Assembly (NCBI GenBank): GCA_008632985.1
Contig: QPGO01000002.1
Span: 1-64,000 of the forward strand
Source of the DNA: Psammoneis japonica
Lineage: Eukaryota
Direction of reading: 5' to 3'
Length of the DNA: 64,000 nt
Shown here: in pieces, positions 8,372-62,252 of the stretch
Layout of the letters: every line of letters begins with the position of its first letter
Position numbering within the stretch: position 1 is the stretch's first letter
Program-made: the position numbers and the translations under genes
The notes under the pieces: generated by a model
The model's input: the letters and a program-made list of their open reading frames with translations, nothing else
Told to the model about the DNA's origin: nothing
Databases searched by the model: none

Positions 8372-8414
8372 CAGGTCAAGGGTGGTGCCCCAACATGGAG
8401 ACACCCTGAGATGT

Positions 8415-9595: not shown

Positions 9596-9596
9596 T

Positions 9597-12500
9597 GTGC
9601 GCTGTGCTTGAAGAATGAGCACAAACAAAAGCAGAGCCAAGTGTGAAAAGTGAAGATTGTGAGATTTGTTTCTGCTCAATCATTTTGGGTTTCTCCAAAT
9701 GGGTTCTCAATGGCCTGAAGCATTTGCGCTGTTCTCACAGACAAGAGACTTTTCGGAGAATGAGATCATGACAGCAGATTGTCCCGATGTGATTGACATT
9801 GACACACAAGACGTCAACATCATTGCACGATTGTGTTTGCCATTTTCGACATCTGGTCATTTCTGTGTGATTGACATGTCCTTTGTACGAACCCACAATT
9901 GTTGCACGATTGAAGCACAAATGTTTTTAACATCTCCACACATGCACACACAATGTGCGCAACAACGCACGCTGCATTTGCCCCCCCAATTGCACACTAG
10001 AGTCAGTTGTTGAATGGCACAATCCAACCGACATTGACAGCGTCAATGACCTCACTGTGTTTGATCTGCACTGTGCCATTGGTGTGTGCCATTGTCATTG
10101 CATGTGGTCCAACATGGGGCTGCTCTAGTTTCTGTGAGTCTTTCTCAAGCAGTGTCTTTTCTCCTGCTCTGTGCGTGCAAGGAGTGTGTCAAGCACTCTC
10201 TTGAGCATCATTTTCATTTGTGATTTTTGGTTTTCGCTGCTGGATGAATTTCCAGTCTGTGACTTGTTGGACGTTAAATGTCACATCTCTGTTGAAGACC
10301 AATTGTCCAGGTGTGGCTTGCACAGCAGTTTGACATGCAGAACGTGCTGCAAGTGCCGCTGCTGATGACATTTCAGCAAAAGGATCCTCAGCATTCAGAG
10401 GTGCATGTTGCAAATCAAGTGTGCAGATCATGTTTCCCAGCACTTGATGTGTGCATTCAACAACTGCGTTTGCTTGTGGATTTTGTGTGGTTGTGGGCTT
10501 GACTTCAATGCCACAATCATCTTGAGCCATGTCTTTAAATTGGTGTCTGATGAGCTCACTTCCACAGTCACAAGTGATCAACTGTGGCCAAGGACATCTG
10601 CTTGACCATGTCTGTTCTAACAGTCCAGCCACAGTTGTGGATTCCTCACTTGAAATTTCCACAACTTCAAGCCATCCGGTTGCTGGATCAATCATTGTTG
10701 AACACTTCAAGACTGGGGGTTTCTTCTTTCCCTTGCAACGCATCTTGCATGGCACAACAAGGTCCACACACAGTCATTCCCATGGCATGGATTCTGCACA
10801 CTCAGGAGGCAAATGTCCACATTTCTTGTGTTTCTTTTTGAATTTCTGGCACGCCTCACATCTCGACATGAATTTTTGCATGTCTTCACACAAGGTGGAC
10901 CACCGTGAGTGTTGTGAGATTGTTTCTTCTGTTTGATTTGTGCCAGGGTGAAGAAGGTGTGCATGACGCCAATCAATCACTGCCTTTTGCAACCTCTTTG
11001 GAACAACAATTTTATCCTCATGACACATGAGCAACCGGTCTTGCATGAAATGTCTTGTTGGACAATTTGGAGAGAATGTCTTTGCCCCATTTTTGTCCAG
11101 TGTCAAGAACTTCATGGTTTGATGGAAAGACACTGTTGCAGGATTTTGGCAGGACCTTTTCAGCCAACTCTTCTGTGCTGAGGTTTTCCATGGGTTCTGT
11201 TTTTTTTCACAGCAAGTTGGCTAACTGCATCTGCGAACATGTCATTTCAAGACTGCACTCTTCTGTCATCAGACGCCAATGCATGACTCTGTCCATTGTG
11301 AAATTTTTGTGTGCGAGATTTTTGTGGTCCGCGTGTGTGTTCATCTGTTGGCCAAACAGCACATTTCGGAACTCTTTTGATGTCTCCACCATGGACAACA
11401 GCTTTTTTCCCATTGTGGCATGATGCGTCTGCGCTCCACTCAGCTTGCGGCTGTGGGGGGCAATCAGTTGGTTTTTCTGTGTGACAACCGCCCCCAGCTG
11501 AGAATTGCTTGCATCGGCACATGTCTCAGAGGGTGCATTGAAATTCGGATGTGACAACAGCATGTCTTTGGAGATGACGCACTTCATGTTTTCAAATGCT
11601 TTTTGTTCTGTTTTGGTCCACTGCCACTTTGCTTTGGTTGAAGCAAGTTTGGCCAAAGGAGCTAGAACATGAGATTGTCGAGGCCACATGTCTTGATGGC
11701 AAATGATCGTGCCGACAAAGCGCTGCAATTCTTTGCAGGTTTTGCAAGTTTCAGTCACGTGAATCACTTCTGCTTTTTTTGCAATGGGGCTGATGCCATT
11801 GCAGGTGACAAGAAAGCCCAGATGGTCCACTTGGGGTTTAGCGAAAAAAGACTTTTCGGCATTGACCTTCAGCCCAGCTTGTTCAAGGCACAGAATCACC
11901 GTCTCAAGCTTCGTGAGGTGGTCTTGGAAATCACCTTTTGCGAGGCACAGTGCATCGTCAATGCAAGTCCTGACGAACTCAAGACCTGCCATGAGCTCAC
12001 TCACGTGCTCTTGGAAAATGTCTGGAGCTCCACAGATTCTCGCAGGGAGTCTGCAGCAGTCATGTTTGCCCCAAGGCATGACAATCATGCACAAACAACG
12101 TGCGCGCGGCATTGATTTGATGTGACAGCATCCCACAATTAAATCATGGGATGTTGTGTGTGCGAAACCTCCAAGTTTCTGTGGCACATCCTGAACATTT
12201 GGCAGAGGAAACGGCGCACGTGTTGGCCTCTTGTTCAGCTCACAAAAGTTGGATGAAAACCAAACTTGACCATTTTTCTTTGGTTGAACAAAAAATTGGA
12301 GCTGCCCATTCAGAACAATTCAGTTTTCTCAAGACCTTCATTTTGCACAGTCTTTCAACCTCCTTTCAAACAGACGCCTCCAAGTGTCACATCATTGAGG
12401 TCAGCAGTGTGACAATCTGAGTCAAGGCCTGCTGGATTGGCGTGAATCACTTTGGCCCTTTTCCCAGGCTTCCTCATGTCCAGCAATGTGCAAGACTCCT

Positions 12501-13160
12501 CTTGCGGTGCAAGTCATTCGTCATTGTTGCTGTGCGTCAATTTTTCAAATTGACAGTTCTCCTCATCAAGGGTGTCAGAGTTGCAATCCTTGCTCTTGCA
12601 CTTCTCATCCTTGTTTGAGGAACTTGCCTTGAGCATTTTTTGAACTGCCTGGACTGCCGCGGCATTCAACTCTTCCTTGCAAGAGGCATTTTCATTGTCG
12701 CGAAGTGACCACGTGCATTTGCCATTTGAACGGCACCGTTTTGGATCACGCCAAATGTTTCCACAGCGTTCTTTTGACAGTTTTGTGATCAACCAGCATT
12801 TGTCCATGTTGTGAGTGGATTTTTCACATGATGCGCACCACTTGTTGGACTGAGAATTTTCGGCGCCATGTTGGTGACCATTTTTGGAACCAAGTTTGGA
12901 GCCATTCTTGGCTTTCAATCCAGCACTGCTGCTGGGATCAGCCTTGACATGAGCGCTGTCAAATGTGTCCTCTGCAACCTCTGGGTGCTCCAAAAACTCA
13001 ACCAACTCATTGCAGGCATGTTCCAAAATTTTGAAACCTTGGGCGGTTGACTGACGCTGCCACTTTTGAGGTGCAAGATCAAAGAGGATGTCCTTGAGCT
13101 TTTCCACCTCAATCTTGTGATTCTCCTCAAAGGGAGGACAGAGCTTGAAGTCTTTGTTGA
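9597..13160 (-). mobile_element. Decayed Ty3/gypsy: gag (13160-12514), RT/RNase H (~12360-11230), integrase (~11050-10003), PPT (~9980), 3' LTR (~9976-9597)
   Basis: Gag CxxCx4Hx4C ([15 protein letters not shown]); RT PWGKHDCCRLP, VRTCIDD; RNase H ADASNSQLGAV, DHKNL; integrase HLLHPG..CEACQK, DCGSE, NPQANAVVE. Protease region deleted. Confidence 0.93.
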
Positions 13161-14465
13161 CATCCATCATCTGCCATCCACCATCCATCATCCACCATCC
13201 ATCATCCACCATCCACCATCCATCATCCGCCATCCACCATCCACCATCCACCATCCACCATCCACCATCCACCATCCACCATCCACCGTCCACCATCCAC
13301 CACCCACTGTCCACCGTCCATCATCCATCATCCATCATCCACCATTCACCAACCATCATCCATCAACAGCCACCCATCATCCTTCATCCACCACCCATCA
13401 CCCATCAACCGCCATCCAAAAATTTCCATCCACCAGCCATCATCCACCATCCATCATCCACCATCCACCGTCCACCGTCCACCGTCCACCATCCATCATC
13501 TGCCATCCATCATCCATCAACCGCCAACAATTGTCCACCACCCATCATCTGCCATCCATCATCCACCATCCATCAACTTCCATCCATCATCAACCAACTG
13601 CCACCCATCAACTTCCATCCACCATCCATCGTCCATCATCCACAATCCATTGTTTGCCACCCACAATCCATCGTCCACCATCCACTGTCCATCATCCACC
13701 GTCCACCATCCATCAACCGCTTTCCATCATGCACCATCCATCATCCGCCATCCATCAACTTCCACCCATCATCCATCAACCGCCATCCATCAACTTCCAT
13801 TCACCATCCATCGTCCATCAACCATCATCTGCCATCCACCACGCACTGCGCACCATCCATCATCCACCATGCATCATCAACCATCCATCAACTTCCGCCC
13901 ATCATCCATCAACCGCCATCCATCAACTTCCACCCACCACCATCATCCACCATCCACCACCCACCATCCATCATCAACCACCCACCACCCATCATCCACC
14001 ATCCACCATCCACCATCCGCTGTCCACCACACATCTCACACCAACCATCATCCATCAACCGCCATCCATCATCCATCATCCACCATCCACCATCCATCAA
14101 CCATCATGTCCATTCACCAGCCATCATCCACCACCCATCATCCATCATCCGCCATCCACCATCCACCATCTGCCATCCATCATCCATCAACTGCCATCCA
14201 TCAGCGCCACCCATCATCCGCCATCCACATCCATCAACCGCCATCCATCAACCACCATCCGTCAACTTCCACCCATCATCCATCATCCGCCATCCATCAT
14301 CTGCCATCCGCCACCCATCATCCACCATCCATCATCCGCCGTCCACCATCCACCACCCACCATCCATCATCCATCAACCGCTGTTTGTCATCCACCATCC
14401 ACCGCCCATCATCCATCATCCATCAACCACCACTCGTCATTTTTCATCCACCAGCCATCATCCAC
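13161..14465 (+). repeat. (CCATCCA)n-type degenerate heptamer array
   Basis: Direct inspection; truncates the gypsy gag. Confidence 0.95.
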
Positions 14466-14938
14466 CCTTTGCTGCGCGGCTTGTGGCTTGCATTTTGGGC
14501 TGCACAACAAAAGAACAACTGACAACTGATTGCTCAATTGCACTGTCATGCTGCACATGAGCAACCACATTTCATCTCACATTTTGTGAGATGGGTCCCG
14601 CTTGATCAACGTTGTTGAATGCATTGAGCGGTGTCATGATTGACAGACAAAAGCCATCATAAATGGGGTGCAAATGTGCCGTGGTGTGTTGCCCATTTTT
14701 GTTGCTTGTTGACTGAGTCTTGTGTGTGGGTGTGTGGTTCTGCACATGCCGGCACGTGCAATGCACAGAAATGTGCAAGAGGGGAAGCATGAGGAGCACT
14801 CATGCATTGAGTGTGTGTGTGTGACGAATGGCAAATTTGTGGCAATTTCCCATGAATTCACCCCTCTCATGGAAAAACAGGGCAAAAGGTGGCAATCCCG
14901 GGGAATTTTGAGAACACACATGGGAAAACCAAACTGGG
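14466..14938 (+). mobile_element. Right-end fragment of a relative of the 8-bp-TSD TIR element (54534-55706)
   Basis: Ends AAAACCAAACTGGG; interior similar to 55340-55706. Confidence 0.7.
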
Positions 14939-16451
14939 TTGCCAAATTTGTTGAGGAAGACAACCATCAGATGAGACGCCCAATTGTTCCATCTGCAAAC
15001 GGGCAAGCAACTCATGCAGCACAGCGTTTTCCACTGCCCTTGTTTTCAACTTGTTGTTTGTCTGGTGTTTTGCATCCAGGCAGACTTCTCCCAATTTTGG
15101 AGACCACAAAGACTGGCCAACCTGATGATGTGTCGTTGTGCATGCCAACATCAAATCTGTGTGTGCCAGTTTGATGGGAGGCAACAATCGGCAGGAAATC
15201 CATCGGGAGGCGTGGAGTGCAAGACATTGTGTTTGGCATCTGCTGACCAGTTGGTGCATCTTTGGTTGGCACAACTCAAATCAAAAATGTCAGCAAAACC
15301 TGATGTCATGGTGTCCTTTGTTTTTTTTTGACAACCAACACACGAGGGCAGACGGGTCAACAACTGCCAAGACAGACATTTCCGTGTTGCATGATGTCTG
15401 CACTGTGCTCAAAGAATGAGCACGAACAAAAGTAGAACCAAGCATGAAAAGTAAAAATTGTGAGATTGAATTTTGCTCTGTGATTTTTGGTTTCTCCAAA
15501 CAAGTTCTCAATGGCCCAAAGCTTCTGCACTGTTTCCACAGACAAAAGGCCCTTCGGAGAATGTGTTTGTGACAACAGATTGTCCGGATGACGTGTTCCA
15601 GTCCCAGGTGATGCACAAAACGACAATCGATTTTGAACATAAATTGTGCACCCTTTGGTGCAATCACTCCATCTGCACACAGGCAAGCAACTCACACTGC
15701 TCAGTGTTTTCCACTGTCCCTGTTTTCAACTTGTTGTTTGTCTGGTGTTTCTCACCCAGGCAGACCTCGTTCAAATGAAAGTGGAGCCAAGCATGAAAAG
15801 CAAAAATCATGAGATTAAATTTTGCTCTGTGATTTTTGGTTTCTCCGAACAAGTTCTCAATGGCCCAAAGCTTCTGCACTGTTTCCACAGACAAAAGGCC
15901 CTTCGGAGAATGTGTTTGTGACAACAGATTGTCCTGATGATGTGTTCCAGTCCCAGGTGATGCACAAAACGACAATCGATTTTGAACATAAATTGTGCAC
16001 CCTTTGGTGCAATCGCTCCATCTGCAAACAGGCAAGCAACTCACACCGCTCAGTGTTTTCCACTGCCCCTGTTTTCAACTCGTTGTTTGTCTGGTGTTTC
16101 TCATCCAGGCAGACTTCTCCCAATTTTGGAGACCACAAAGACTGGCCAACTTGATGATGTGTCTTTGCGCATGCCAACATCAAATCTTTGTGTGTCAGTT
16201 TGACGGAGGCAACAATTGGCTTGAAATGCATTGGGAGGCATGGAGTGCAAGATCTTGTGTTTGGCATCTTCAGACCAGTTGGTGCATCTTTGGCTGGCAC
16301 AACTCAAATCATCACAGTCGTCGGAGAAAACATCTGTCCTGGCAACAAACAAGGGCAGTCTGCAATGGCCATCCTGGCATGGCAGGTTGTCTCGAATCTT
16401 GACGGCACTGACAACCACTTTCTTTTTTTGTCCGGCTTTGATGCATGGGTG

Positions 16452-16829
16452 GACGCGTTCCAGCCCCAGGCGGGACTCCGTGTGACATTGGGCCCACAGA
16501 ATTTTACGTGTGAGCTCCGTTGTACGAGAATCTGATTGATGGATGTGTTTGTCTTCAACATCAAACAAACGGCCAAGTTTGTGGTGCAATTGTGCCTCTT
16601 GCCACTCAACGTTTTTGCAAATGCACCTGCCCTGCACGATTCTTGAGACATCATAGAATCGCGCTGCAACAAAAAATGTCAAAAATTTTTCGACGGATCG
16701 CTCAACAAGTGCACCGCAAAATGACACAAAATGTCAAAAAATCACGTAGAATTCTGCGTGCGAGACATGCGACGAGATTCAAAAAACTGTCGATGTCACA
16801 GCTCAGCAGTGCAAGGTCCCACCTGGACC
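16452..16829 (-). mobile_element. Family A element, reverse orientation, one end truncated and fused into family B
   Basis: Starts GACGCGTTCCAGCCCCAGGCGGGAC; ends GTCCCACCTGGACCTG and runs into the B interior ATGCACAAAACG. Confidence 0.8.
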
Positions 16830-17074
16830 TGATGCACAAAACGACAGTCAATTTTGAATGCAATTTGTGTGTTTTTCAGTGCATGTGGCATTTTCCCACA
16901 AAATGCTCAGATGGATTGACTTTCATGGGCTTCTAGAGCATGGACATTTGAACAATTTTTTAGGGACACTCAAGTCCTCATGGATGCGCTCCAGCTCCAG
17001 GTGGGACCTCGCACTGCTGAGCTGTGACATCAACAGTTTTTTGGATCACGTTGCACGTCACGCACGTGCGTTTC

Positions 17075-17258
17075 TGAACAAATGCTGACACACTGTCACG
17101 AACATGGGCAGCATGTGCACTGTTGGCGATTGGTCCACTGTTGCTTGTTTGGTGGCCCCAGCGGCGCAACATCTCACAGTTCTGGAACCTGTTGATGCTG
17201 CTCAACACTCTGTCTTGTCTCACACCCAATTCTCAGCTGTCATGGTGGTGTCAACTCA
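17075..17258 (+). repeat. copia 5' LTR
   Basis: Ungapped match to 22857-23040. Confidence 0.95.
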
Positions 17259-17789
17259 GTTCATCAGAGCCAGCACGCTGTGATGTTCATCGCCTGGAAT
17301 GGGCATTGCAAACGGTGTGACGGCATTGTTGCGATCGATCGATTTTTGCGGCAAGCGCCATGTTGATCCCACGGTTGCTCGCACAATCGCTGAGTCCTTT
17401 GTGCGCATCAACATTCATGAATGTGAACGATGTGCTCTTGGAGACCAGAGTTGTGATCCGTTGAACATGACATTGGTGGATGGCATGTTTGATCACGTGG
17501 ATGGAATGTGTTGGCCAAGGCACACAAACATTCGTGATGTTGACAACACAGCGGTTCATGTGTTGAGGTCTGTTGATTGACTGCAAACATTTGGTTGACC
17601 AAAATGCGTCATCAGATTGTTTGGACACTGCACATGTGGACACATGTCTGTTGCCAATTGTTGCTCAGGAGCAACACCACCTGCTCGCAGGTTGCTGAGT
17701 GGAAACCGCCAAATCGGCATGACAACCACACATTTTCTCACTTTTCTCCACTCACAAAGTGATGCTCAAGCGTCAAAACGCAAACAACT

Positions 17790-19221
17790 GCTGACGCACC
17801 ATGGCTGCTGCCGCAGCCTTTGCTGCTGGCCTCACACGTTGTGGATGCAATGCGCAGATGCACACCCACATCGCTCATCAAGGCTTTGCACTGTTGAGGA
17901 CTTGGAACAGGTCCCTTTGACAGAAATCACTGATGTGACTGAGGGCATTGTGAAGAGCTTGGATGCCGCCGCCAACCCCCAAGCCCGCTTCCCATGCCTG
18001 GCAAATCGCAAGCTCAAGGCACTGCACGCATGGATTGACTGCCACAGGGCCCAAAATCAAGAGCCGACCGCTGCTCTCTTTGCTGGCAACGTTGTTGGAA
18101 CATGGACGGCATGACTCACGGAACCAGAGCAATTCAAGTCTGCAGACTCGGATGACGAATCGGCTGCCAAAGCGGCCATGGAGCTCAAGAACCCACATGA
18201 CTGGCCTGCCTTCCAAGAGTTTCTGGAGACCAAACTGCACCACCACTGCAGCGCTGTTGCCGGCGTGCCCCTCATCCACCCAATTGGGGAGCATGAAGAT
18301 GTTGCCGCCAAAATGTTGGCTGCTGCGTGCACTGCCATTGACGAGGACCTTGTTGCCACTGCCCGACTTGCAGGAGCGCAGTGTGCGCAGGACAGGCAAT
18401 GCCTGCATGATCTCTTGAAGAAGTCAGTGACAGGGGGGCCTGGATGGGCTTTTGTCAAACCTTCCAATCGCAATCACGATGGTTGCACTGCTTTCTTTGC
18501 ACTTGAGAGGCAGGCGGAAGGATCGGCTGCCGCCACCACCCGCAAGAACCGTGCTTGTGCACAGATTGCTGCTGCGAAGCACACCGGACGGGGTCGATTC
18601 ACTTTTGACCAGTGCGCTCAGCATCATCAAAAGGCTCACAATGACTTGGCCGAGCTTGATGAACCGGCAGCCGAGACCAAGAAGGTCTCTGACTTTCTCA
18701 AGGGTGTTTCCGACCCTGGGTTGGAAACTGGTGAGAGTGCAGTGGATGGCGACCCGAGGAAGCTCGCGGACTTCAAAGCATGCCAGCAGCATGTGAAGAC
18801 TCTGGCAGAAAATGCTGAGAACCGCAAAACTGACAATTGTGGCATCGCGTCCATCCAACGCCGTAACAACCGGCATGGGAACCCTGGAGAAAAGCACCAG
18901 CCTGAGAAGGATGAGCCCAGGATCAGGGCAGGCCGTTGTCCAATCAAGGAGTGGAGTGCTCTTGACGATTCTGAAAAGGAGCAAGTTGGCAAGCTCCGCG
19001 AGGCCAAGAAAGCCAAGAAGAAATGCAAAGCAGCATCTGCATCCTTGGAGGCTGAGATGGTTGACACCCAAACTCACGCGGTTGAGAAGGTGGCCATTGT
19101 CAAGCCTGATCCTGAACCTGCTGATGAACAAAAGGACTCCGAAGAGTCCAACAAACCTGCCGCCAATGCAGGCACGCAGTTCGGACGCAGCGCACATGAG
19201 AAACCTCAGAAGGAGGAATGA
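17790..19221 (+). pseudogene. gag: copia gag (decayed)
   Basis: ORF 18178-19221 with the upstream part broken by a stop; Tyr-free; typical gag position. Confidence 0.75.
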
Positions 19222-19284
19222 GCAGTTGCGCCAGCACCAAAAGGCACAGAACCAAATGTCGCTAAACCTGCTGGCACCACACAT

Positions 19285-22200
19285 TTGTCCAAGCGATTCT
19301 TAAAGGACACACATGTCTCTTTGTCATCTGCCAGAAATCCAGATGATGAAGCAACCACTGATTTGGACTCGCACACTGACACGTGTGCTGTCAGGTCCAA
19401 TTCTGCAATGCACCCTGATGTCGACAGAACTGTTGCAGTGCACCCTTGCTCCAAAGAGCACGCACCAATGAAAAATGTTCCCATTTGCACGGCTGCTGCC
19501 ATGTGGGTTGACCCAACTGATGGACAACCACACCCACTGCTGGTCCATGAGGCCATGCTTTTCGGGGACAAGATGACTGACAGTCTCCCATGCCCCAACC
19601 AACTGCAAGCGAATGGACTGACTGTCCATGACACCCCCCACCAGTTTGATCCGACTGGCGCACACTCCATTTCTTTCCCTGACTTGAAGATCAGGGTGCC
19701 ATTGCAAATGTGAGATGTTGCTTCAGTCTTTGACTCACATGAGCCAACAAAGGAGGATCTGGAGAACCTCCCCCGGCTGGAACTCACATCACCCCTGAAA
19801 TGGGAGCCGTCCACTGATGCCAAGGTGCAAAAGGAGGAAGCGCACGCATGTGCTGGTGCACGCCAACGACCAGCAAAGTCTGATGGACAGTCAACGATGA
19901 TGAATGCGACCAGGCACGTCGCTTCCATTCAGTCATGTCAAATGTCCTGTCATGACAAAAATGTCATTGTGGATGCCAATGACGACGATTCCCTGTGTCA
20001 CCACCTGGTTGCTCAGGCAAATGTCTCCCACAACAACATTGAGGGAGATGGGCCACACAACCGGCATGACCCAGATGTCCACCCGGATTGTGCCGAGCGG
20101 AAATGGGTGCATGCACTGTTGACCTCTAGTTGTGCATCAGCCATCACACCTGAGACACTTTAAAAAAGGCAGAACATTGGCCTGACGGCCGCCAAAAAAC
20201 ACCCTTGGAGTGACAACCCAGGCAGGGGTCCGCAATGTCTGCACACCATCCGAACGGAAAGTCCAGAAGAAAGCCCCTTGGCTTGAGTTCCCTGCCATCA
20301 AGGGACGCTTCTACTCTGACCAGATGTTTTCAAAGGTTGGGTTGACACATGGTGAGACAGGAGGAAGTGCACTTGCCAACGGAAGAGGGCATGACAGGTT
20401 CTGTCCTTGGAAGAGGAAACAGGACCACCCGAACGCCGTCATGTCATTCACACATGACATTGGCACACCGCAAGTCCTTGTGTCTGATGGCGCGCCGGAA
20501 ATGGCTGAAGGCCAGACCAAAGAGATTTGCAAGGAACACAGGATGCACCAGGAAGTGTCCACCCCATGCAGCCCCTGGCAGAACCCAGCCGAGGCATCCA
20601 TCCATGAGTTGAAGAAGAGAGCCCGCGTGACTCTACGCCGGACTGGCGCTCACAGGCGACTTTGGTCCTGCAGCGCCAAATGGATGTGTGACATTCGACG
20701 CATGATTGCAACTGGTGTGTCGGACATGGGAGGACGAGTCCCAGAAGAGGAGGTGACAGGTTCAATGCCTGACATTTTGTCCCTCTCTCTCTTTGATTGG
20801 TGCCAACCTGTCCACTGTTGCGTGCCAGCGGCGGAGTTCCCACACAAGAAGAAGTGCATTGGCCATTGGCTTGGAGCAGCCGACAACTGCACTGACGATG
20901 TGGCATTTGTTGTCCTGCCCAAATCAGGCAAACCCATCATTCGGAAGAGTGTGCGGGCCATGCCGGAGGATGACCTTAAAACTCCGGCGATCCAAATGGA
21001 TCTTGCATTGGTTGATCAAGCTTTGATCAAACGGCTTGACATCCCGGATCAGGATGCCAAGGTTGACTTCCCTGAACTCCCTGACGACTTCATGGACGAA
21101 TGGGACGATGCCTTTGAACCCGTGGAACCTGATGCTTCCAAACCAGAAGCTGATGAGTGCACCCCAGAAGGGCTAGATGAGCATCTCACAGCTCAAGTCA
21201 TGTTGCCACATGGAGGCAAGCTGACTCATGCTAGGGTCATTGCACGCAAACGAGATGGCAACGGGGTTCCTGTTGGCGCTGGGAACCACAACCCTGTCCC
21301 AGACTCGAGGACATGCAACGAGGAATTTCCTGATGGATCCACTGATTCCTGTGCTGCCAACGTAATTGCAGAGAACCTGTTTTCTCAGATCGACTCTGAA
21401 GGGAATGCCTGCCAGATTGTGAAGGAGACAGTTGATCACCAAAGTGATGCCCCGTGCCGCAACGGCTGATGACGGGTGCATGATGACTGAGACTGGCAGG
21501 CGTGCTCCCAGGAGGACAACCGCAGGCTGGGACCTGCAAGTCGAATGGAAGGATGGAACTACATCCTGGGTTCCTCTGATGTCTGGATGCAAGCTGCGGT
21601 TGAGCTGGATGGCTTCAAGCACTGGGAACATGCACTTGTCTGTGTGGACGACTTGTTGTGCATCTCCCATGAACCTCAGAAGGTCATGGATCACATGAGC
21701 TCTGGGTGCACACTCAAGGACGGAAGTGTCTGCGAGCCGGAAGAGTGCTTGGGCGCCCAAATCAGAAAGCACCAGCTGTCTGACTTGGACGGCAAGACAC
21801 GTTGGGCTGTGTCCTCTGACCTTCATGTCAAGAGGGCATTGGCTGATGTTGAATTGGAGCTCAAGAAAACTGACAGGTGTCTTCTGACAAAAGCATCAAA
21901 GCCCTTGAGCTCGGGAAATGGGCCTGAACTGGACAGCTCACCTGAGTTGAACGCCAAAACGGCCAACTGCTTCCAAGGCCTCATTTTTGTGCTACGATGG
22001 GCAGTTGAACTGGGGCGAGTGGACATTTTTGTCGCTGTCTCGCTCATGTCCTCCAACTTGGCGGCACCACGAGTTGGACACCTGGACGAGGTGCTCCACA
22101 TCTTTGCATGCTTGAAGGCTCACTCCAAGTCTGCACTGGTGTTCGATGACACTGAGCCTGTCTTTGACAAGAGTCACTTCACCAAGTGTGATTGGGGAGA

Positions 22201-22706
22201 ACACTGCCCTGGCGCGGCTGAACCTGTGCCGCCGAATGTGCCGGAGGCACGCGGGAATGGTGTGACCCACTGCTTGCTTTGTCAATGCTGATCATGCCTG
22301 ATGCCATGTGACACACAGGTCCGACACTGGGATCCTGATGTTTGTCCAACGAGCGCCCATCTTGCATTGCTCCAAGCGGCAGAATGCCGTAGAGTCCTCT
22401 GCTTTTGGGTCAGAGTTCGTGGCTATGAAGACTGCAGTGGAGCAAATTGAAGCCTTGCATCACAAGCTTCGGATGCTTGGGAACCCCATGGATGGGGCCA
22501 CTGACGTTTTCTGTGACAATGAGGCTGTCTTCAAGAACTCAACTGAACCAGAGTCCACTTTGAAGAAGAAGCACAATGCAATTGCCTGTCACAGGACTCG
22601 TGGCGTGCATTGCTCGGGAGGGCGGAAGTGCGAATTTAGCGGACGTGCAACTGAGTTGTTGCCTGGACCGAAGCTCCAAGAAATCACAAGTCACATCCTG
22701 TGGTGA
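19285..22706 (+). pseudogene. pol: copia pol: protease, integrase, partial RT, RNase H
   Basis: LDSHTDTC (protease), LVSDGAPE and PCSPWQNPAE (integrase), EWKDGTTSWVPL, LVCVDDLL (RT), SKRQNAVESSAFGSEF, VFCDNEAV, LKKKHNAIACH (RNase H); RT N-terminal half deleted near 21578. Confidence 0.93.
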
Positions 22707-22856
22707 GTCCCAAAAGGGGACAAACCAAACGGGTTTGCCGCGTGGGTGTGGCTTCTCCCATCCCCAAAACACAATGCTGCCCTGGAACAGGGTGGCATCA
22801 GGCTGCATTTGTCTGTCGATCTGGCCCGACCTGAGCTGGTGTCAGTTCAAGGGGAC

Positions 22857-23040
22857 TGAACAAATGCTGACACACTGTCACGAACACAGGCAGCACATGC
22901 ACTGTTGGTGATTGGTCCACTGTCGCTTGTCCAGTGGCCCCAGCAGTGCAACATCTCACAATTCTAGAACCTGTTGATGCTGTTCAACACTCTGTCTTGT
23001 CTTGCACTCAATTCTTGGCCATCATGGTGGCATTTGTTCA
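22857..23040 (+). repeat. copia 3' LTR
   Basis: TGAACAAA...TTTGTTCA terminal inverted repeat. Confidence 0.95.
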
Positions 23041-26000
23041 TTTCTGCATGCGACACTCTACAAAATTGTTTCATGCTCCCTGTTTTGCGAAGCCAAAGGC
23101 TTTCTGTTTTCAACATTTGTGAAAATGAAAATGGGCTGGGTGTGTTCTTTAATGTCTGAAGAACACACCCAGGCAAACCATCAGTGATGCACTCCAAGTG
23201 TGAAGGAGGAGACACATTCGCAAAATTGCCCATTTTGCTGTTGGTGATCTTTCACATTCTCATTGCAGCACAAATTTGCTGCAGAGCTTGCATGCAGAAT
23301 TGTGCGGGCCCAATGTCACGCGGAGTCCCACCTGGGACTGGAACCCGTCCATGGGACATGCATCATGAACTTCCTTGGCAGACTCAATGCTGATTGTGCA
23401 TCATCACATTTTACACTGAGATTTTTTTTAGGCAGAAAGCCTGCCAAGTGGCATCATAGAAAGATGTGTTTGGGTGACATCCAAACAACGGCAATGTTTT
23501 TGCCAAAAATCATCCGTTGTGTCACAAGTCTTTCGGCGCAATGAAAAACACAGATGGCACAATGACAATGATGTTGCAACACTCACACGAGTCTTGTCAG
23601 TGTTGCAAAACATTTGTGTTTGTGTGAATCTACACTTTTGGTGGTGAAAGTTTGATCGTGAGTTGTGGGCCATGCAAAAATTGTGCAAATGTTGTTTTTG
23701 TGCATGATTTGGTTCAAGCGCGGCTGGAACACATCCAGGAGCTGAGGTGAAATTTCTTGCCCCTGCTGCTGGCAGCAAAAAAATGCTTTGCACAATCAAT
23801 CAAGGAGCAATGGGAGTGCTTGTGGAAACCTTGACCAATTGTTTTGACACTGGGCTGTGGGGCTAATTGGTTTGGAGACTTTGCTGCATTTGTGCAGCAG
23901 ACTTTTAGGGTGAATGCCTTCTTTGGCTAATTTTCTAAAACAACTTTGAAGGACGTGATGCTGCCTTGAATGAAGCAAGGGAAAAGTGAGTTGAAAGAAA
24001 CAAGGGAAAAGTGAGTTGATCATGTTTTTGCTTGCTGACTGCACTCATCACAAATGCCAAAAAAGGAGGGAAAATCTAATGTCAATTTTCTGACTTGATG
24101 ATTGATGAGGAATCTGACACCACGGCATGGTGACATGCAACGTCAATGCACATGAAGTGCGCGGGTTTTTCAAATCACCAGTGTGCTCCAAATGGTTGCA
24201 AGCATTGACAGTTCAAAAACAAACATTGAAAAAATTGGAGAATGGACATCAACAGAATTCAAAAGTCAATCAACAACTGCCAAGACAGACATTTCCGCAT
24301 TCCATGATGTCAACCGTGGAAACAATGAAAACAAGCAATTTGCTGATGAAGAGCTTTTGCAAAATGGGTTTCCTCACCCACGTTGGACACCTTGCTGTTG
24401 CTCCCACAAGAAGAAACAACACAAGTCTGTCAACAGCCAAGACACACAGGAACTCCATCAAGAAGAGACACAACTTCTTCATGAAGTGAAAAAACAAGGC
24501 AGCATTTTTGGCTTCATCAGTTGCTTGCAGAGTGAGAGAGAATGAGAGCAACTCCAAGTTGCTGACATTGCAAAGTGGGTGGCAGACCAAACCGTCACGG
24601 GAGGGATTGAGTGCCGCATTTCACATCATGTGGGGTGGCTGGGACATGCACTCTGATTGGTTGTTCAACACAGAACAAGCCTCTTGGAGGAAGCGTGGGC
24701 ACAAGCATTCAGATGGGTTTGTTTCCCACAGAATGAATGATGGTGCAAGGGACCATGGCAACCATGAAAACAGGAAGAACAATGACCTGCCATGCCAGGG
24801 TTTGCTTCAAGATGCTGAAAGTGCCAACAAGCTGATGGAGCAGCAAAGGAGCATTGTGCTCTCAAACAGGCAGCCAAGAATGAAAGGACAACGTTGATGA
24901 ATGCTGTGGAGGAAACAGAAAAAGACATTTGTTTGGAAGAAGACAAGGAATGCATGCCATCGGACACTTGTTCAGCAAAGAAGAGCTTGGGCAACTTCAT
25001 CAAGCATGCCCTGTTGAGTCAGACTGCAATGGTTGCTCCTGGTGCATTGCCATCAAGAAATGATTCAACCAATGCATCATGGAAGGCACAATCCCAGGAC
25101 TTGCAAGACAGAGAAAGGAGAAGGAAAGAAGGGAGAAAACAAACAACAGGAAAAGAGAGGTGTTGGCAAACAAGAAAAGAGCCCAAAAAACAAGCAGAAG
25201 AAATCGAAGGTGACGACATCAACCAAGCCTGGAAAGAGCAAGAAGGCCAATGACAAATGGCTGGAAGAGTGCAGTGCAGATGATGCAGCTGGGGTTGCCG
25301 AGAATGCACCAAGCAAGGAAGAAACACTGCCAGAGGATCAGCGCATTGTCGACAATTTGACGAGTCACAAGAAGCGCAACAAAGCATGACACGTCCTTTG
25401 GTTGACCAGAGAAAAGTCATGGGAACCAGAGGAAAACATTGACAATGAATTGGCAAAAGCTCATTGGAAAAGGGTGGAAGACAAAAAAGGCAAAGATGGT
25501 TTGGTTGCATGAAATGGAGGAGTTGAAATGCTGCCTGTGCGGGGAACGGGCAAGCAATGGAGTGCCTTGCAACAAATGTGGACGAATTTCCCACAAGACA
25601 TGCTCATCCAGGATGGGTGATGATCAGCTCCTGTGCTTTGGCTGTTGCAGACACAAGGAACAGCAGAACCTGAAAAGCAATGCAGCTTGCACGGAACATG
25701 ATCACACCCTGCTGTTGCAGCTCTCTTTGTGCGAGACGTTGTGGGAGCCTTTTGTTTTGAACTGCAAAGAGTGAAAGACTGAATGGGGCAAAAATGACCA
25801 GAGACAGGGTCGCTTGTGCAATGGCAAAAACAAAGGGCAGTGCGGAGTGGCATGCTGCATTTCTCGTGGTGACAAAACCTTGCTGAAAGAGGGACACCAG
25901 GGAAAAAGACAGGAGACACAGTCCTGATTTCACACAGCAGTGGCAATGGTTGAATGTTTGTTTGTGCACACAAAGTCGGCTTGTTTGACAGCGACTGTTG

Positions 26001-26412
26001 AAAGTGTGGTGCCCGGTGCAAAGGAACAGTTGTTTTGCAGTGCTTGATCAAAAATGCTGCACAGCAGTTGCTGCTGGATGGCAAAACAGTGGAGCTGTTT
26101 CTCTCTGCTGTCTTTGCATGTGAGAAAACACACACATGTGACATTGTGCAACGTCACATTGAGACCCGGGAAATGGGGGTTCGAGTCTCAGTGGAAAACG
26201 CACAGTCACCTGATCAAGAAAGATCAGTTCATTGTGGAGGAAAGAACACTGATGTCACATTGTGACTTCATTCTGTTGTGCAGATGCAATCTGACATTGC
26301 AAGATGATGTGTGCATCACACGAACAAAAAATGTTGGACATTGCATTGTGACATCATGGGACAACAGGTCAAGGGTGGTGCCCCAACATGGAGACACCCC
26401 GAGATGTTGCAA

Positions 26413-27166
26413 GACGCGTTCCAGGTCTGTGGGGACATTCCAAACAAATGCAGCCAGTGGCTAAAAACCTTCTGTGGAATTCCACGCATTTCTCCTGGCA
26501 TGCGATGTGTTTGATGACAACGCCTTTTAACGTCACCCCATTGTTTTCTTTTGTGTGCATGTGGCCATTTGAAGTTTTTTGTTTTTGTGTTTGTTTTTAA
26601 ACGCTTAAAAGCCAAAGGTTTTGTGTTAACGAGCGTCACATTTAGCAGCAAACCATCGCGGATGTGACATTTGCAGGTTCAGTGAAATGAACAGCAAATG
26701 TTTTCTGTGTGCAGAAACATGCCAGCGCACAAACCTGGCATGTGTCCACACAAGATTTTAGCCACTGGCTAAAATCACTCGGCATGTCCCCACAGGTGGG
26801 ACCTCGCACTGCTGAACTGTGACATCGACAGTTTTTTGAATCACGTCGCATGTCGCGCACGCACATTTCTACGTGATTTTGGCAAAATTTTGCATCATTT
26901 TACAGTGCAATCATCAGGCGATCCATTCAACAACTTTTGACATTTTTTTCTTCTACGCCATTCTCGAGTGTCTTAAGAATGGCGCAGGTCAGGCATGTTT
27001 TCCAAAACTTCGAGCACAGACAGAGACACGTGCGCCACAAACTTGGCCGTTCATTTCATGTTGAAGACAAATGCACCCATCAACCAGAGTGTGAACTGCA
27101 GAGCTTGCACGCAGAATTCCACGGGGCAAATGTCACAAAAAGTCCCACCTGGGACTGGAACCTGTC
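26413..27166 (+). mobile_element. Family A element
   Basis: TSD GCAA (26409-26412, 27167-27170); empty site GTTGCAACTGTG at ~8413. Confidence 0.92.
26430..26792. mobile_element. TA-targeting (Tc1/mariner-like) MITE inserted in the left TIR of family A
   Basis: TGGGGACAT...ATGTCCCCA termini within a ~50-bp imperfect TIR including AGCCAGTGGCTAAAA; flanks TG and CA where other A copies have TA (GGTCTAGGTGGG at 40525). Confidence 0.85.
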
Positions 27167-27674
27167 GCAACTGTGACAGACAAGAGGCCTTTTGGAGAAC
27201 AAGATCATGACAACAGATTGTCCGGATGTGATTGACATTGACACACAAGATGTCAACATCATCGCACAATTGCACCTGCCATTTTCGACATCTGATCATT
27301 TCTGTGTGATTGACATGTCCTTCGTACAAACCCGCGATTGACGCCGAACCCAAAAGATGCACACACCAACCCCAACCTCTGCTTGATGTGGTGGAGCAAC
27401 ATGGGGAGAGCTGGCATGGCCTGACAAAAGTGTCCTTTGCAGTGCACATCATCTTGGGGGGTTCCCATTTCCTGTGTCACATGCAGGAATTTGAATTTTT
27501 TGCCACCCAACCAGGGTGAACAAGAACCCAAATGCCATCAATTCAAACAAGATCATGTTGATGCTGGCTGAGTTCAAGCCTCACAATTGTTTGCCTGATG
27601 CTTGTTGTTTCCTGAATGAACTTCATTCAAACAAGACACCTGCTCATGACAAACTTCTGGATGGATTTGCCCCT

Positions 27675-28229
27675 GACGTGCTCCAGTCCCAGGTGACGCA
27701 CAAAACGACAATCGGATTTTGAACACAATTTGTGCATGTTTTAGTGCACACAGCATTTTGGTGAAAACACTCAGACGGATTGACTGTCGTGGGCTTCTGG
27801 AGCACGAACATTTAAACAGTTTTTTGAGGGGTGTTCAAATCCTCATGGGATGTGTGTCACAAACTTCCTCAGCAGACTCAACACTGATTGCACGTCAGCA
27901 GATTTATGCTGAGATTTTTTTGCAGGTAGAAAACCCACCAAGTGGCATCGTAGAAAGACATGTTTGGGTGACATCCAAATGACGGCAACATTTTCACCGA
28001 AAATCATCCGTTGTGTTACAAATCTTTTCACACAATGAGAAACACAGACAGCACAACAACAATGACATTGCAACACTCACACGAGTCTTGTCAGCATTGC
28101 AAAACATTTGTGTTTGTGTGAATCTATGCTTTTGGTGGTGAAAGTTCGATCGCAAGTTAGGGGCCGCGCAAAAATCGTGCAAATGTCGTTTTTGTGCACG
28201 ATTTGGTTCACGTGCGGCTGGAACACGTC
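27675..28229 (+). mobile_element. Family B element, uninterrupted (555 bp)
   Basis: GACGTGCTCCAG...CTGGAACACGTC; TSD CCCT. Confidence 0.92.
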
Positions 28230-28237
28230 CCCTCAAG

Positions 28238-28585
28238 GTGGATGACAGATGATGGATGATGGATGATGGATGGCAGATGGTGGATGGTGCATGGTGCATG
28301 GCGGATGATGGTTGATGGATGGTGGATGGCAGATGATGGATGATGCATGGCGGATGGCGGATGGTGGATGGTGGATGGTGGATGATTGATGATGGCTGGT
28401 GGATGGTGGCTGGTGGATGATGGATGATGGATGGTGGATGGTGGATGGTGGATGGTGGATGATGGATGATGGGTGGTGGATGATGGATGATGGATGATGG
28501 ATGGTGGATGATGGATGATGGATGGTGGATGATGGATGATGGCTGGCGGATGGTGGTTGGTGGATGATGGTGGACGGTGGATGAT
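28238..28585 (+). repeat. (GGATGGT)n-type array abutting a gypsy LTR
   Basis: Direct inspection. Confidence 0.95.
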
Positions 28586-29833
28586 GTGCACTGTGCTTGA
28601 AGAATGAGCACAAACAAAAGCAGAGCCAAGTGTGAAAAGTGAAGATTGTGAGATTTGTTTCTGCTCAATCATTTTGGGTTTCTCCAAATGGGTTCTCAAT
28701 GGCCTGAAGCATTTGCGCTGTTCTCACAGACAAGAGACTTTTTGGAGAATGAGATCATGGCAACAGATTGTCCGGATGTGATTGACGTTGACACACAAGA
28801 TGTCGACATCATTGCATGATTGTGTTTGCCATTTTCGACATCCGATCATTTCTGTGTGATTAACATGTCCTTTGTACGAACCCACGATTGACGCACGATT
28901 GAAGCACAAATTTTTTTAACATCGCTGCACATGCACACACAATGTGCGCAACAACGCATGTTGCATTCGCCTCCCTGATTGCACATTAGAGTCAGTTGTT
29001 GAATGGCACAACCCAACGGACATTGACAGCGTCAATGACGTCACCGCGTTTGATCTGCACTGTGCCATTGGTGTGTGCCATTGTCATTGCATGTGGTCTA
29101 ACATGGGGCTGTTCTAGTTTCTGTGAGTCTTTCTCAAGCAGTGTCTTTTCTCCTGCTCTGTGCTTGCAAGGAGTGCATCAAGCATTCTCTTGAGCATCAT
29201 TTTCATTTGTGATTTTTGGTTTTGCTGCTGGATGAATTTCCACTCTGCGACTTGTTGGACGTTAAATGTCATGTCTCTGTTGACAACCAATTGTCCGGGT
29301 GTGGCTTGCGCAGCAGTGTGACATGCAGAACGTGCTGCAAATGCCACTGCTGATGACATTCCAGAGAAAGGATCCTCAGCATTCAGAGGTGCATGCTGCA
29401 AATCAAGTGCACGGATCATGTTTCCCAGCACTTGATGTGCGCATTCAACAACTGTGTTTGCTTGTTGATTTTGTGTGGTTGTGGGCTCGACTTCAATGCC
29501 ACAATCATCTTGCACCATGTCATTAAATTGGTGTCCAATGAACTCACTTCCACAGTCACAAGTGATCAATGATGGTCAAGGACATCTGCTTGACCATGTC
29601 CGTTCTAACAGTCCAGCCACAGTTGTGGATTCCTCACTTGAAATTTCCACAACTTCAAACAATCCGGTTGCTGGATCAACCATTGTTGAACACTTCAAGA
29701 CTGGGGGTTTCTTCTTTCCCTTGTGACGCATCTTGCATGGCACAACAAGGTCCACACACAGTCATTCCCATGGCATGGATTCTGCGCACTCAGGAGGCAA
29801 ATGTCCACATTTCTTGTGTCTCTTTTAGAATTT
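28586..29833 (-). mobile_element. Ty3/gypsy integrase and 3' LTR fragment
   Basis: DCGSEFIG..NQQANTVVE..ATPGQLV; paralog of 9597-10838. Confidence 0.9.
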
Positions 29834-29834
29834 C

Positions 29835-32800
29835 TGGTTGCTGGACCAACGTTTTTGTTTCAACATCTTGTGTTTCCGTTTTAGTCAGTTGGACTTGACT
29901 TGCGACAGCAGTGCACCGGATCATTGCAAGAATTGCCTCGAAGTCTTCATTGGGAAAGAACCAAAGTGCGGCAATTTGGTTGGAACTGTGATGTTGCGTG
30001 AGATGGCCAGTCCAGGCTCCGTTTCTCGCGTTTGTGATCGCATCATGCGGGAAACAACCTTCGTTTGTCAAAGCAAAAAGTTGAAAACATCCTCAGACCA
30101 ATTGGTTGCACCGTTCCAAAGGAAGATTTTGCTTGTCCAGAAGACACATCAGGCAAAATCAATTTGGGCGAAGTGAGTGAAAACTGCTTCAGCAATGAAG
30201 AAGCAAGGATGAATTGCACGACGATCTCCAATGGAGTCACTTGTGAAGGTGAAGCGACAGACAAAGACCTCGATGAAACAAAGGAGGAGAAGAGGAAGAC
30301 TGGAGCGAGGGGTTGCGAATTGGATGACTGTTTCGACCATTCCAGCAACATTGACGTCACTCCGCTTGTGCTGCAATTGTTTGTGGCAGCCACCTCTGTG
30401 TGCAATGGCAGGGACAAGGTGGTGGTGCTAACAACGATGAGCCAACTGCCAGTGAATCACAGGAATGCACGATTTGCAGGCATTTGCAACAGCAGTTGCA
30501 GGCGAGGAAGTTTTCGTGACAAAGAACTGCCAGGCACAATGCAGACGGCACAGGGAGAGTCGACGGAGAGTTTTCACAGAGCATCGCACACTGCAGTGCC
30601 TTGCGCTTTGGTGGACAAATGCACCAAACATTCACGGGTTGTCCCCGTTTTGGACGTGCTGGAAGAAAACAACAAAAGACTCTAAATTCCAGCGGGGCAG
30701 CTCGGGTTGCTCAGGATCATGCTGCATCACTGTTTTGGATTCTTGCAGGACAGAGGTTGTGCCACACCAAGAGGAACCCTGGGCCTGGCTTCATCAGAGA
30801 CGTGTTCATTGCGAAATCACAGGGCATGGCAAGGAACTGCGGCATGAGTCTTTGCACAAGCCTTGTTGACGCTTTGGACAAATCTTTCAACTCGCTGCGT
30901 GAACCCAAAGATTGGCGTGCGCTCAACCTTCATTGCAGGAAGATTCTTTCTCGAGACTTCATCATTGGCAAACAGGTTCTGGTGCCTTTTTGGCATTGTG
31001 AATTCACGCCGCTGCCGACAGATGAAACAATGTTGCAAGCCGAAACAGCGCTGTTGTTCCAGGCATGCACGAATGTTCGCATTGCACTTTTGGACGGAAT
31101 GCACAGATCGTGTGGCGGCATCAGTGCCAGGCTGAGAGCATTGCCTGCAACAATGTGGGAACAACACAGAGAGAACCCATCTCAGTTGTGCTCAAATGTC
31201 GGTGCAAACAATGACAGACTGACCAAAGAGGCAAACGCTCATTTTGTGCAGCCAGTCACAAACACCCAGACGACTCACTCCAGCAATGCCAGCTCGTTGT
31301 TCACTTCAAAGGAGTTGTGGATTGGCAAAAAATGCAGTGAGAAGGTGCAGGCAGACCTGCAGAGTGGCAGGGGGCGTTGTTTTTTGGATGTGGTGCTTTC
31401 GGCATGCGACCATTGCAGCAAAAATCCAGATTTTTGGCAACCTGGAGAACTCCAAATGAGGAAAGTGGCAAATGATGCAAGAGCAAACACGGCTGAACAG
31501 AATTTCAACGATGCCGACAAAAACAAAAAGCAACAAAGAATCATCAAAGAAAAGGTGATGAATCTTTTTTTCAGTGACACGTGCAAGCCTCTCATCCAGT
31601 GCTTGCAACAGGCAATCAAGCAGCAAGGAGGGGCCTCTGACGATGCTGGCAAAGCTCACATTGCAGTCTGGTTGGACGCCCTGGAGAAGAAGAAGGTGAA
31701 AGGAATGTGCAACAGAATGGGACCTTTTCCTGTCAGACCGGGGATTTGTGGTTTGTTGAATCTGTTCTCAAACTTGTTGCACAACAGACAGAGTTCAGGT
31801 TTTTTGCAACAAGCAATGAAGAACGCAACAACCTCAGTGTTTCCGGATTGCCACAGAAAGGATTTGTTGCGCCATGACACAGCAAACAATTTCGAACGTA
31901 ACTGCGACGGGGAGGCAATGGGCATTGACACCGCGTCATTGAAAAGCATTGAAGACTGGCAAGTGCCCGATGAAAAGAAGATTGGAAAGGCATTCAAGGT
32001 GTGTTTTGGCAGCTCCATTCCATTTGTCTTCTCGTCCGCTGTGTCAAATGGGACCAACGTTGGCTCCAAATTGACCATGTCTGTCCTGTGTGCGTTGACG
32101 GTCGAAATGGGACCATCATTGGGGCCAAATGGATCGTCTGTCATGTGCGCGTGTAACAGGTCGAAATGGACCCATCAATGGGCCCAAAATGGATCGCATC
32201 TTGCAAGTGCACGTTTGTTCATGTGGGACCAGCATTGGCTCCAAGTCGACCATGTTTTGTTCTGTGCTTGCACGTGCTCAATTTTCGACAATCATTGACT
32301 GGCCGTTGTTTTCGTTCGTTTCATTTGCAGAGATTCTTCTCGAACATTGGCAACTGATCGATGACGCCAGATGATGTCAACTGTTTCGGCGAGGATGTCC
32401 ACTCTGCACTTTTGGATCCACAGATCATGCTGGGGCGCACTGTGTTGAAAGCAAAAGGAGTCAAAAAAAACAAAGAAACGGATCAAAATTGGTTGACAAG
32501 GATCTTTCTTGCAGCCGGCAAGGACATCCTCCAGTTGCATGCTTCTTTCAGCTCGGTGTTGCCTGTCAACAAGGATTGGTTGCGTCCAAAGGAAACTGAT
32601 GGTGAAGCTTTTGCTCCGCCTGGAAAAGACCGTCGTGAGAACACTTGGTTGTGTCACTCCATGCTGCTTGAAGACCCTGAAGAAGACACCGATGCACAAG
32701 CAGCAATGATGGACAAGGACACTTTGAAATCATGCAGAGAGTTGGTGAGAAAAGGCAAGGCCAACCCAGACATCATGATGAACATTCCCACAATGGCGGC

Positions 32801-35153: not shown

Positions 35154-35320
35154 CTTGTCAAAATGACATTGCAGTTGTGGACAGCAAGCCAGTGTCCAAT
35201 CCCAAAAATCATTGGCAATTCCATTGGTGGGTCGAAATGGGTCCAGCGTTGGTCCCAAAATGCTGCAGTCTGTCCATCACCCGGCAACCGAAATGGGTCC
35301 AGCAAAGGTCCCAAATGGGC

Positions 35321-35381
35321 AGTCTGTACGTCGTACGTCGCCATTTTATGATTAAAATCATTGACGGACGACGTGCAGACT
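35321..35381. other. Hairpin with ~19-bp arms downstream of the large gene
   Basis: AGTCTGTACGTCGTACGTC ... GACGGACGACGTGCAGACT (2 mismatches). Confidence 0.75.
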
Positions 35382-62233: not shown

Positions 62234-62252
62234 ATGGACCCTGCCACTGGAA

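Follow-up and report, generated by a model that had tools for sequence, protein, structure and literature searches.

Near-saturating loss of TpA dinucleotides across a repeat-rich domain of Psammoneis japonica that holds a degenerate copia-type retrotransposon

The first 64,000 bases of contig QPGO01000002.1 of Psammoneis japonica (assembly GCA_008632985.1), in the following called the window, are almost devoid of the dinucleotide TA. At 17074-23038 the window contains a Ty1/copia-type retrotransposon with long terminal repeats (LTRs), measuring about 5.96 kb from LTR to LTR, which by its sequence is a dead and degenerate copy. A preliminary description of this DNA had noted that conserved tyrosines are lost in the reverse transcriptase (RT) and RNase H part of the element. 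The rule behind this loss was confirmed, but it is not confined to the element: the depletion spans all 64 kb. Our reading is that this repeat-rich domain of at least 64 kb has probably passed through a near-saturating TpA hypermutation acting on DNA, with an adenine deaminase as the agent we favour. The features needed for the argument are the following:

1..64000, no strand: domain depleted in TA and enriched in TG and CA by observed/expected dinucleotide ratios (o/e), extending past both ends of the window
16452..16838, + strand: high-copy repeat of about 380 bases, the copy adjoining the element, used as an independent test (8 copies in the window)
17074..17256, + strand: 5' LTR, direct repeat with 22856-23038, boundaries approximate
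18178..19221, + strand: upstream open reading frame of 347 amino acids, presumed gag by position only
19267..22703, + strand: degenerate copia polyprotein that retains its N-terminal part, the integrase, the C-terminal part of RT and RNase H, from tblastn
20186..21466, + strand: integrase-bearing open frame, 49-54% identical to the six best full-length relatives, E down to 7e-148
21578, + strand: junction of an internal deletion with about 235 residues lost, most of the RT domain (residues 753-987 of the relative P0001 have no counterpart)
21580..22620, + strand: end of RT (CVDD for YVDD), linker and RNase H, with 14 conserved-tyrosine columns
22383..22403, + strand: two T/G codon boundaries with Ala where relatives have Thr, from alignment to homologues
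22848..22855, + strand: possible polypurine tract, a short purine run abutting the 3' LTR, from direct reading of the sequence
22856..23038, + strand: 3' LTR, direct repeat with 17074-17256

The LTRs share a core of 175 bases, 88% identical in the repeat search, and can be aligned over 183 bases with 27 mismatches. Their ends are blurred by mutation, and a clean target-site duplication could not be fixed at the element. The polyprotein remnant is collinear in tblastn with polyproteins of 1370-1428 amino acids, e.g. with residues 1-752 and 988-1370 of P0001, and this collinearity places the integrase in front of RT and RNase H. The integrase frame gave a weak match to Pfam rve (E 0.023). In the profile search the copia frames of the window reached no Pfam RT family, because the deletion at 21578 removes most of the RVT_2 domain, which spans residues 854-1049 of P0001. 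The remaining polyprotein matches proteins carrying PF07727 RVT_2 with E values down to 1e-126 (tblastn) and 5.8e-77 (phmmer). For the presumed gag frame no Pfam or PHROG family was found.

Frame changes break the polyprotein near 20197, near 21450 and at about 22266-22268. At these places part of the depth of a DNA sequencing run, X1, lacks one base (160 of 405 at 20197, 233 of 810 at 21450 and 511 of 1334 at 22266), so that some other copies of the family are free of these changes. Contigs of X1 also connect 17066 directly to 23057 with the element absent; the element is inserted in high-copy repeat DNA. In the order of integrase, RT and RNase H, in its short LTRs and in a total length of about 6 kb the element resembles CoDi, the Ty1/copia elements of diatoms. 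Its sole named relative is a diatom protein (Fragilaria crotonensis, 31% identity); the nearest relatives (49-54%) are environmental sequences. A search of public proteins for paralogues of the integrase frame found none that exceeded 54% identity at a query coverage of 82% or more, and one fragment with 61% over 27%. Since close public paralogues were not found, ancestral states were drawn from distantly related sequences and from the window's own repeats.

For this purpose, 30 copia polyproteins (the first 30 of 60 relatives) were compared with the window by tblastn, and columns with at least 10 aligned homologues and at least 60% agreement were taken as conserved. The whole element comprises 29 conserved-tyrosine columns, in which the window reads Cys 16 times, His 10 times, and Tyr, Asn and Phe once each. 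None of the 14 columns within 21580-22620 has kept its tyrosine: eight read Cys (21641, 21707, 21746, 21968, 22109, 22205, 22368 and 22587), four His (21620, 21629, 21824 and 22461), one Asn (21917) and one Phe (21971). The altered motifs listed in the preliminary description are all present where it placed them, and each is Tyr or Thr in intact relatives; its seven tyrosine motifs all belong to the 29 conserved columns. The relatives do not already encode Cys, His or Ala at these positions; the 60 copia proteins have a normal tyrosine content of 2.4-4.5% with 0.6-2.2% cysteine. The corresponding values for the stop-to-stop frames of at least 150 amino acids in the window are 0.08% Tyr and 4.4% Cys, with 8.2% His.

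Residues are altered not only at tyrosine codons. Ala stands in place of Thr at T/GCC (22386, Thr in 26 of 26 homologues) and at T/GCT (22401, Thr in 25 of 26), i.e. exactly where an ancestral TA would span the codon boundary, as the preliminary description had claimed for both sites. The same holds across the element: 12 of 16 residues with an A-first codon that were replaced by a G-first counterpart follow a T, compared to 1 of 76 retained A-first residues (Fisher p 6.2e-11). The few TAs left in the aligned frames are spread over the codon phases 1-2, 2-3 and 3-1 (3, 6 and 6, respectively). TA is lost whatever the codon phase, in both directions and in non-coding DNA as well, which makes it a dinucleotide rule on DNA and bears out the early preference for such a rule over codon reassignment or amino-acid bias.

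The two directions of change at the former tyrosine sites are intermingled along the element (14 runs, 13.3 expected), and Cys and His do not differ significantly in number (16 against 10, p 0.33). The absence of runs and of a significant strand bias fits many independent single events on either strand. A strand preference in favour of TG was considered, as the sense strand of the element has an o/e of 1.86 for TG and 1.49 for CA. It was rejected because intact relatives lean the same way (medians 1.22 and 1.14) and because of the Cys and His counts.

Nine of 343 public proteins are copia fragments nearly free of tyrosine (P0108, P0111, P0123, P0132, P0134, P0158, P0178, P0189 and P0243). They contain 0-0.9% Tyr and 8-11% Cys plus His, with Cys or His where relatives carry Tyr. 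These fragments belong to distinct lineages with 34-72% mutual identity, and two are tagged as Logan assemblies. A tenth protein low in tyrosine, P0341, has no excess of Cys or His and was left out of the count.

The depletion of TA extends over the whole window. The o/e of TA is 0.06, corresponding to 234 TAs in 63,110 called bases (0.37%), and 0.05 within the element. It does not exceed 0.14 in any 2-kb window and amounts to 0.09 and 0.13 in the two end windows. TG and CA each reach 1.71 over the whole window (1.37-3.58 and 1.10-2.81, respectively, in 2-kb windows). The baseline was taken from metagenomic copia loci related to the element (the best 80 of 566), which have a TA frequency of 5.0% and an o/e of 0.49-1.05 with a median of 0.68. 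Given this minimum, no TA-depleted, hypermutated relative was found among these best 80 of 566 loci. Copia, gypsy and long interspersed nuclear element (LINE) remnants, satellites and low-copy DNA are all covered by the depletion. AA, AT and TT show none (o/e 1.22, 1.06 and 1.25), and GC-biased gene conversion was rejected for this reason; TC and GA are at 1.00 and 1.11. The trinucleotides TAA and TAG occur 110 and 62 times, TGA 1589 times, and the window holds 91 open frames of at least 150 amino acids. CG is reduced to an o/e of 0.58, which together with 104 columns pairing CG with TG or CA in paralogues suggests that decay of methylated cytosines took place in the same domain.

Survival of the remaining TAs depends on the neighbouring bases. 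Compared to the copia baseline, TTAA is 4.1-fold and TTAG/CTAA 2.75-fold over-represented among surviving sites, while ATAT, ATAC and GTAT account for none of 468 strand-summed sites (26% expected). When the two strands were modelled as independent contributors, each acting through the base that follows its A on the 3' side, the deviance dropped from 277.5 to 15.9 on 6 degrees of freedom; on a mononucleotide baseline it dropped from 196.9 to 17.2. The log survival relative to TAA is -0.31 for TAG, -0.94 for TAC and -2.48 for TAT, giving a mutability order of TAT > TAC > TAG > TAA.

The LTR pair allows the changes to be timed. The 27 mismatches comprise seven adjacent pairs of TG against CA (14 bases), four differences of CG against TG or CA, one of TA against TG and eight others. 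A pair of TG and CA indicates an ancestral TA (or CG) altered in opposite directions in the two copies. The LTRs of one element are identical at insertion, and much of the change must therefore have arisen after integration, on DNA. When a simple two-copy model is fitted to the CG columns, about two of the seven sites are ascribed to CpG, so that most of the seven record TA changes on the integrated DNA. From the LTR counts we estimate that about 95% of the TA sites have changed, compared to about 2% divergence per copy at ordinary sites; the calculated TA rate is about 100-fold, i.e. two orders of magnitude, above background.

Seven non-satellite paralogue pairs were picked by hand: five long segmental pairs, chosen from 771 self-match rows of the window that are mostly satellite matches, as well as tandem repeats and the LTR pair. 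They contain 37 columns of CA against TG, 14 of TA against TG or CA and none of TA against CG, in addition to 769 TG/TG and 641 CA/CA columns shared by both copies. An independent test is provided by the repeat of about 380 bases, whose further copies lie at 1116-1395, 26793-27161, 40523-40709, 41527-41728, 51334-51710, 56306-56686 and 61466-61852. Four columns of the eight copies hold TA, TG and CA side by side, four hold TA and one product, and 16 hold CA and TG. A further 22 columns are of the CpG type, and no column mixes TA with CG. At 16328-17066, 26382-27295, 40500-41100 and 61500-62100 the o/e of TA is 0.12-0.26. The stretches holding this repeat retain somewhat more TA, as if it had been inserted later.

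Run X1 holds 43% of the sampled words of 18000-23000, for which no RNA runs were listed. Its contigs, about 141 Mb in total, were aligned to 14500-28200 (13.7 kb), and the summed depth was scored. The depth is about 70-170 in low-copy DNA and reaches up to 86,000 over the 380-base repeat. Over the element it is 5,400-10,200, which suggests that some tens of copies (about 60 by depth) exist at a likeness of at least 85%. Copies were compared at 40 of 1023 differing places. At eight of the 40, TA is present in other X1 copies and TG or CA in the window; the reverse was seen at one. At 16566, for instance, T is read in 116,305 of 174,584 depth units. TA is therefore readable in the same context and in the same data, and copies differ in the extent of mutation. 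Two further runs, X2 and X3, barely cover the stretch (5 and 12 contigs); TA-rich loose ends in X2 may derive from other DNA and were left unused.

According to our proposal, each TA would be converted to TG by A>G on one strand, or to CA by the same change on the opposite strand. Tyrosine codons (TAY) would thereby turn into Cys or His codons, and residues would also be altered where a codon ending in T meets one starting with A. ATA would become ATG or ACA, TAG would become TGG or CAG, and TAA would become TGA or CAA. As no new stop codon is made in this way, long frames stay open although they no longer carry meaning. An A>G change at T-A is what would result if adenine were deaminated to hypoxanthine, and a candidate agent may be a TadA/ADAT-type deaminase acting strand by strand on an adenine preceded by T. 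For the tRNA adenosine deaminases, the target A invariably comes after a U. The targets may be silenced foreign or repeated DNA, and the role could be a defence against mobile elements. That the process acts on DNA after insertion is very likely; the adenine-deaminase step is put forward tentatively, and we would not be surprised to see it replaced.

Several observations weigh against this proposal or limit its reach. We infer the deaminase from sequence, and the order by 3' neighbour (T > C > G > A) is not that of ADAR, which prefers a 3' G. The notion of a targeted process draws on the TA-bearing copies of one repeat family in X1 and on analogy with a preprint discussed below. Changes in X1 amount to 206 G>A and 235 C>T against 219 A>G and 198 T>C; as the two directions are about equal, most other copies appear to be about as mutated as that of the window. 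Moreover, X1 may be the source of the window itself, in which case it lends the sequence no independent support. The five long segmental pairs share most of their TG and CA, so that much of the loss either preceded the duplications or cannot be timed. Finally, 18 TA/TA columns are kept in the paralogue pairs where a one-rate model predicts 1.2; sites thus differ in rate, which the context rule explains in part.

Among the other explanations, a modified thymine is the chief rival on chemical grounds. 5-Hydroxymethyluracil (5hmU) or a similar base at TpA could mispair with G or be misrepaired, giving T>C on either strand, and in a strand-symmetric pattern A>G with an effect of the 3' neighbour is indistinguishable from T>C with an effect of the 5' neighbour. 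In dinoflagellates, TA and TC are the contexts in which 5hmU preferentially takes the place of T, and the base marks transposable elements, according to the accessible part of PMC11572971, which reports no mutagenic outcome. TC, the second of these contexts, is undepleted in the window (o/e 1.00, with GA at 1.11). A dinoflagellate spliced-leader relic had no match in the window, which is a weak test, and the contig total of X1 (about 141 Mb) is low by dinoflagellate standards. We regard this explanation as unlikely. The same applies, with slightly more conviction, to an untargeted lack of TA throughout the genome, caused by mutation bias or selection, to which the element would have decayed. 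It would account for the depletion of all 2-kb windows, for low-copy stretches (depth 72-171, 24097-25467) being as depleted as repeats, and for the absence of TA from about 300 bases flanking other repeat copies in X1. It does not agree with copies of the 380-base repeat from the same sample that retain TA at sites mutated in the window, nor with the higher TA content of younger high-copy inserts. In addition, functional proteins need tyrosine codons, so host genes must escape, and in Bigelowiella natans the depletion is limited to clusters (10.64898/2026.01.13.699255, accessible text).

A sequencing or assembly artefact, in which a modified base or a systematic miscall makes TA appear as TG or CA, is very improbable. 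The change is extreme and bound to context, as motif-linked base-calling errors can be, and the sole run holding the stretch may be the source of the window. But that run reads TA in other repeat copies in the same local context, and its contigs of 200-300 bases match the window with no other letters. Strand-specific miscalls would also keep many TAs and create CG, at odds with the ratios observed for both, and the same changes arose anew in B. natans lines sequenced with Illumina technology (10.64898/2026.01.13.699255, accessible text). We give hardly any credence to the idea that an ADAR-like enzyme hyperedited the RNA of the retrotransposon ahead of reverse transcription and that integration then fixed the edits. 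ADAR prefers U before the edited A (10.64898/2026.01.13.699255), and edited retroelements are known in animals (PMC4866542; both sources in their accessible parts). However, ADAR-type editing would leave A>G on the sense strand only and two identical LTRs, whereas the sense strand shows changes of both kinds (16 Cys, 10 His) without strand-coordinated runs, and the LTRs differ at seven TG/CA sites. Satellites, LINE and low-copy DNA are depleted equally, and as a sole cause RNA hyperediting is already contradicted. Codon reassignment, or selection on proteins for Cys and His over Tyr, is likewise contradicted and has next to no probability. Nothing but the raw residue counts speaks for it. Non-coding DNA and each of the three codon phases are depleted to the same degree, TAA and TAG are nearly absent as well, and frame changes and a deletion have disrupted the element.

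The hypermutation on DNA which we favour has a counterpart already in print. Mettrop et al. (bioRxiv 10.64898/2026.01.13.699255), in the accessible text, report that in B. natans the new AT>GC mutations in the integrated DNA of a giant virus and of a virophage all fall on TpA, and that their rate exceeds the background about 1000-fold. They describe 324 TpA-poor genes with a mean TpA frequency of 0.0018, enriched in RT and endonuclease-RT domains, as well as 124 clusters of depleted 1-kb windows, and name an ADAT2-like candidate for the process. The restriction to TpA, the TpG and CpA products according to strand, the contiguous regions and the RT-rich depleted genes are common to both cases, as far as that text goes. 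In our window the changes are confined to TpA and give TpG and CpA; consecutive windows lie at or below the Rho TpA of 0.43 used there and are enriched in CpA and TpG, a combined measure that we did not take in exactly the preprint's form; and the affected DNA is foreign or mobile (copia, gypsy-type and, by a weak match, LINE-type). The TpA frequency is 0.0037 here, compared to the mean of 0.0018 for that depleted gene set. The active regions of B. natans are partly depleted (Rho 0.45 for the giant virus), whereas the value here is 0.06 over 64 kb. In the preprint's accessible text the words retrotransposon, copia, LTR and tyrosine do not occur, and an effect of neighbouring bases was not seen there. 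Beyond this preprint, whose supplements may list comparable loci, no other report of TpA-specific hypermutation was found in the literature searched. The window is a new example, saturated and unusually complete, of a process described only very recently; the window-wide extent, the action after integration seen in the LTR pair and the existence of a printed precedent all go beyond the preliminary description.

Fungal repeat-induced point mutation (RIP), partly as generally known and partly as set out in PMC7882544, converts C to T mainly at CpA, enriches TpA, lowers GC and creates stops. It is similar in that transitions bound to a dinucleotide ruin repeated or mobile DNA in place, together with neighbouring sequence. 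Here, in contrast, A:T>G:C at TpA removes TA instead of adding it, raises GC and makes no stops. The editing of animal LTR retroelements by APOBEC or ADAR also produces clusters of deaminase-driven transitions that inactivate retroelements, but it acts on one strand, during or before reverse transcription, whereas in the window both strands are changed after integration and DNA other than retroelements is included. The decay of methylated CpG, which occurs in the window too, likewise turns a self-complementary dinucleotide into TG and CA. The loss of TA is a separate class of sites, without any column mixing TA and CG, and far more complete.

To the B. natans case the window adds the saturated end state and, through its LTR pair, proof that the changes take place in DNA already integrated. 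It further shows that retroelements with and without LTRs are affected, as is the intervening DNA, and adds a quantitative preference for neighbouring bases that can be tested on candidate deaminases. It is conceivable, although we hold the view with reserve, that TpA-directed hypermutation outside B. natans is a more widespread counterpart of RIP which saturates repeat-rich domains of more than 64 kb. If so, the per-strand preference in the order TAT, TAC, TAG, TAA would be a fingerprint for identifying the enzyme. A mutator erasing TpA from mobile DNA would constitute a second form of genome defence, chemically opposite to the fungal one.

Apart from the copia element, gypsy-type RT-RNase H remnants (RT_RNaseH_2) lie on the minus strand at 11210-12319 (E 2e-18) and 37413-38534 (E 2e-19), and both are likewise without TA. 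A frame of 744 amino acids on the minus strand at 42822-45053 shows a weak endonuclease/exonuclease/phosphatase match (E 0.007) and is probably a LINE remnant, judged from this likeness. No host genes were detected when 26 long frames of the window were searched against Pfam, which gave transposon domains or noise below the threshold; nine frames had no match in PHROGs, and neither tRNAs nor Rfam families were found in the window. Three frames on the plus strand, 30520-32295 (592 amino acids), 32358-33869 (504) and 59924-61549 (542), have no family match, and look-ups of the 592- and 542-residue frames in the Atlas gave no usable match. All three are longer than would be expected by chance even with TGA as nearly the only stop, and they may be genes of mobile elements or viruses hypermutated past recognition. 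As long open frames without tyrosine fail family searches, gene finders may call them as orphan genes.

An assembly gap of 890 N lies at 4373-5262. Two pairs of segmental repeats, 2655-10849 with 23009-29837 and 52263-54092 with 57229-59056, are 91-96% identical, and the copia element lies immediately upstream of 23009-29837, the second member of the first pair. Diverged arrays of a 7-base satellite (e.g. GGTGGAT and variants) occur at 9026-9588, 13161-14432, 28237-28570, 35422-36913 and 48088-51287. They are up to 3.2 kb long, are found in both orientations and cause GC skew with extremes of +0.70 and -0.54. The o/e of CG rises to about 1.0-1.27 in the array at 48-51 kb.

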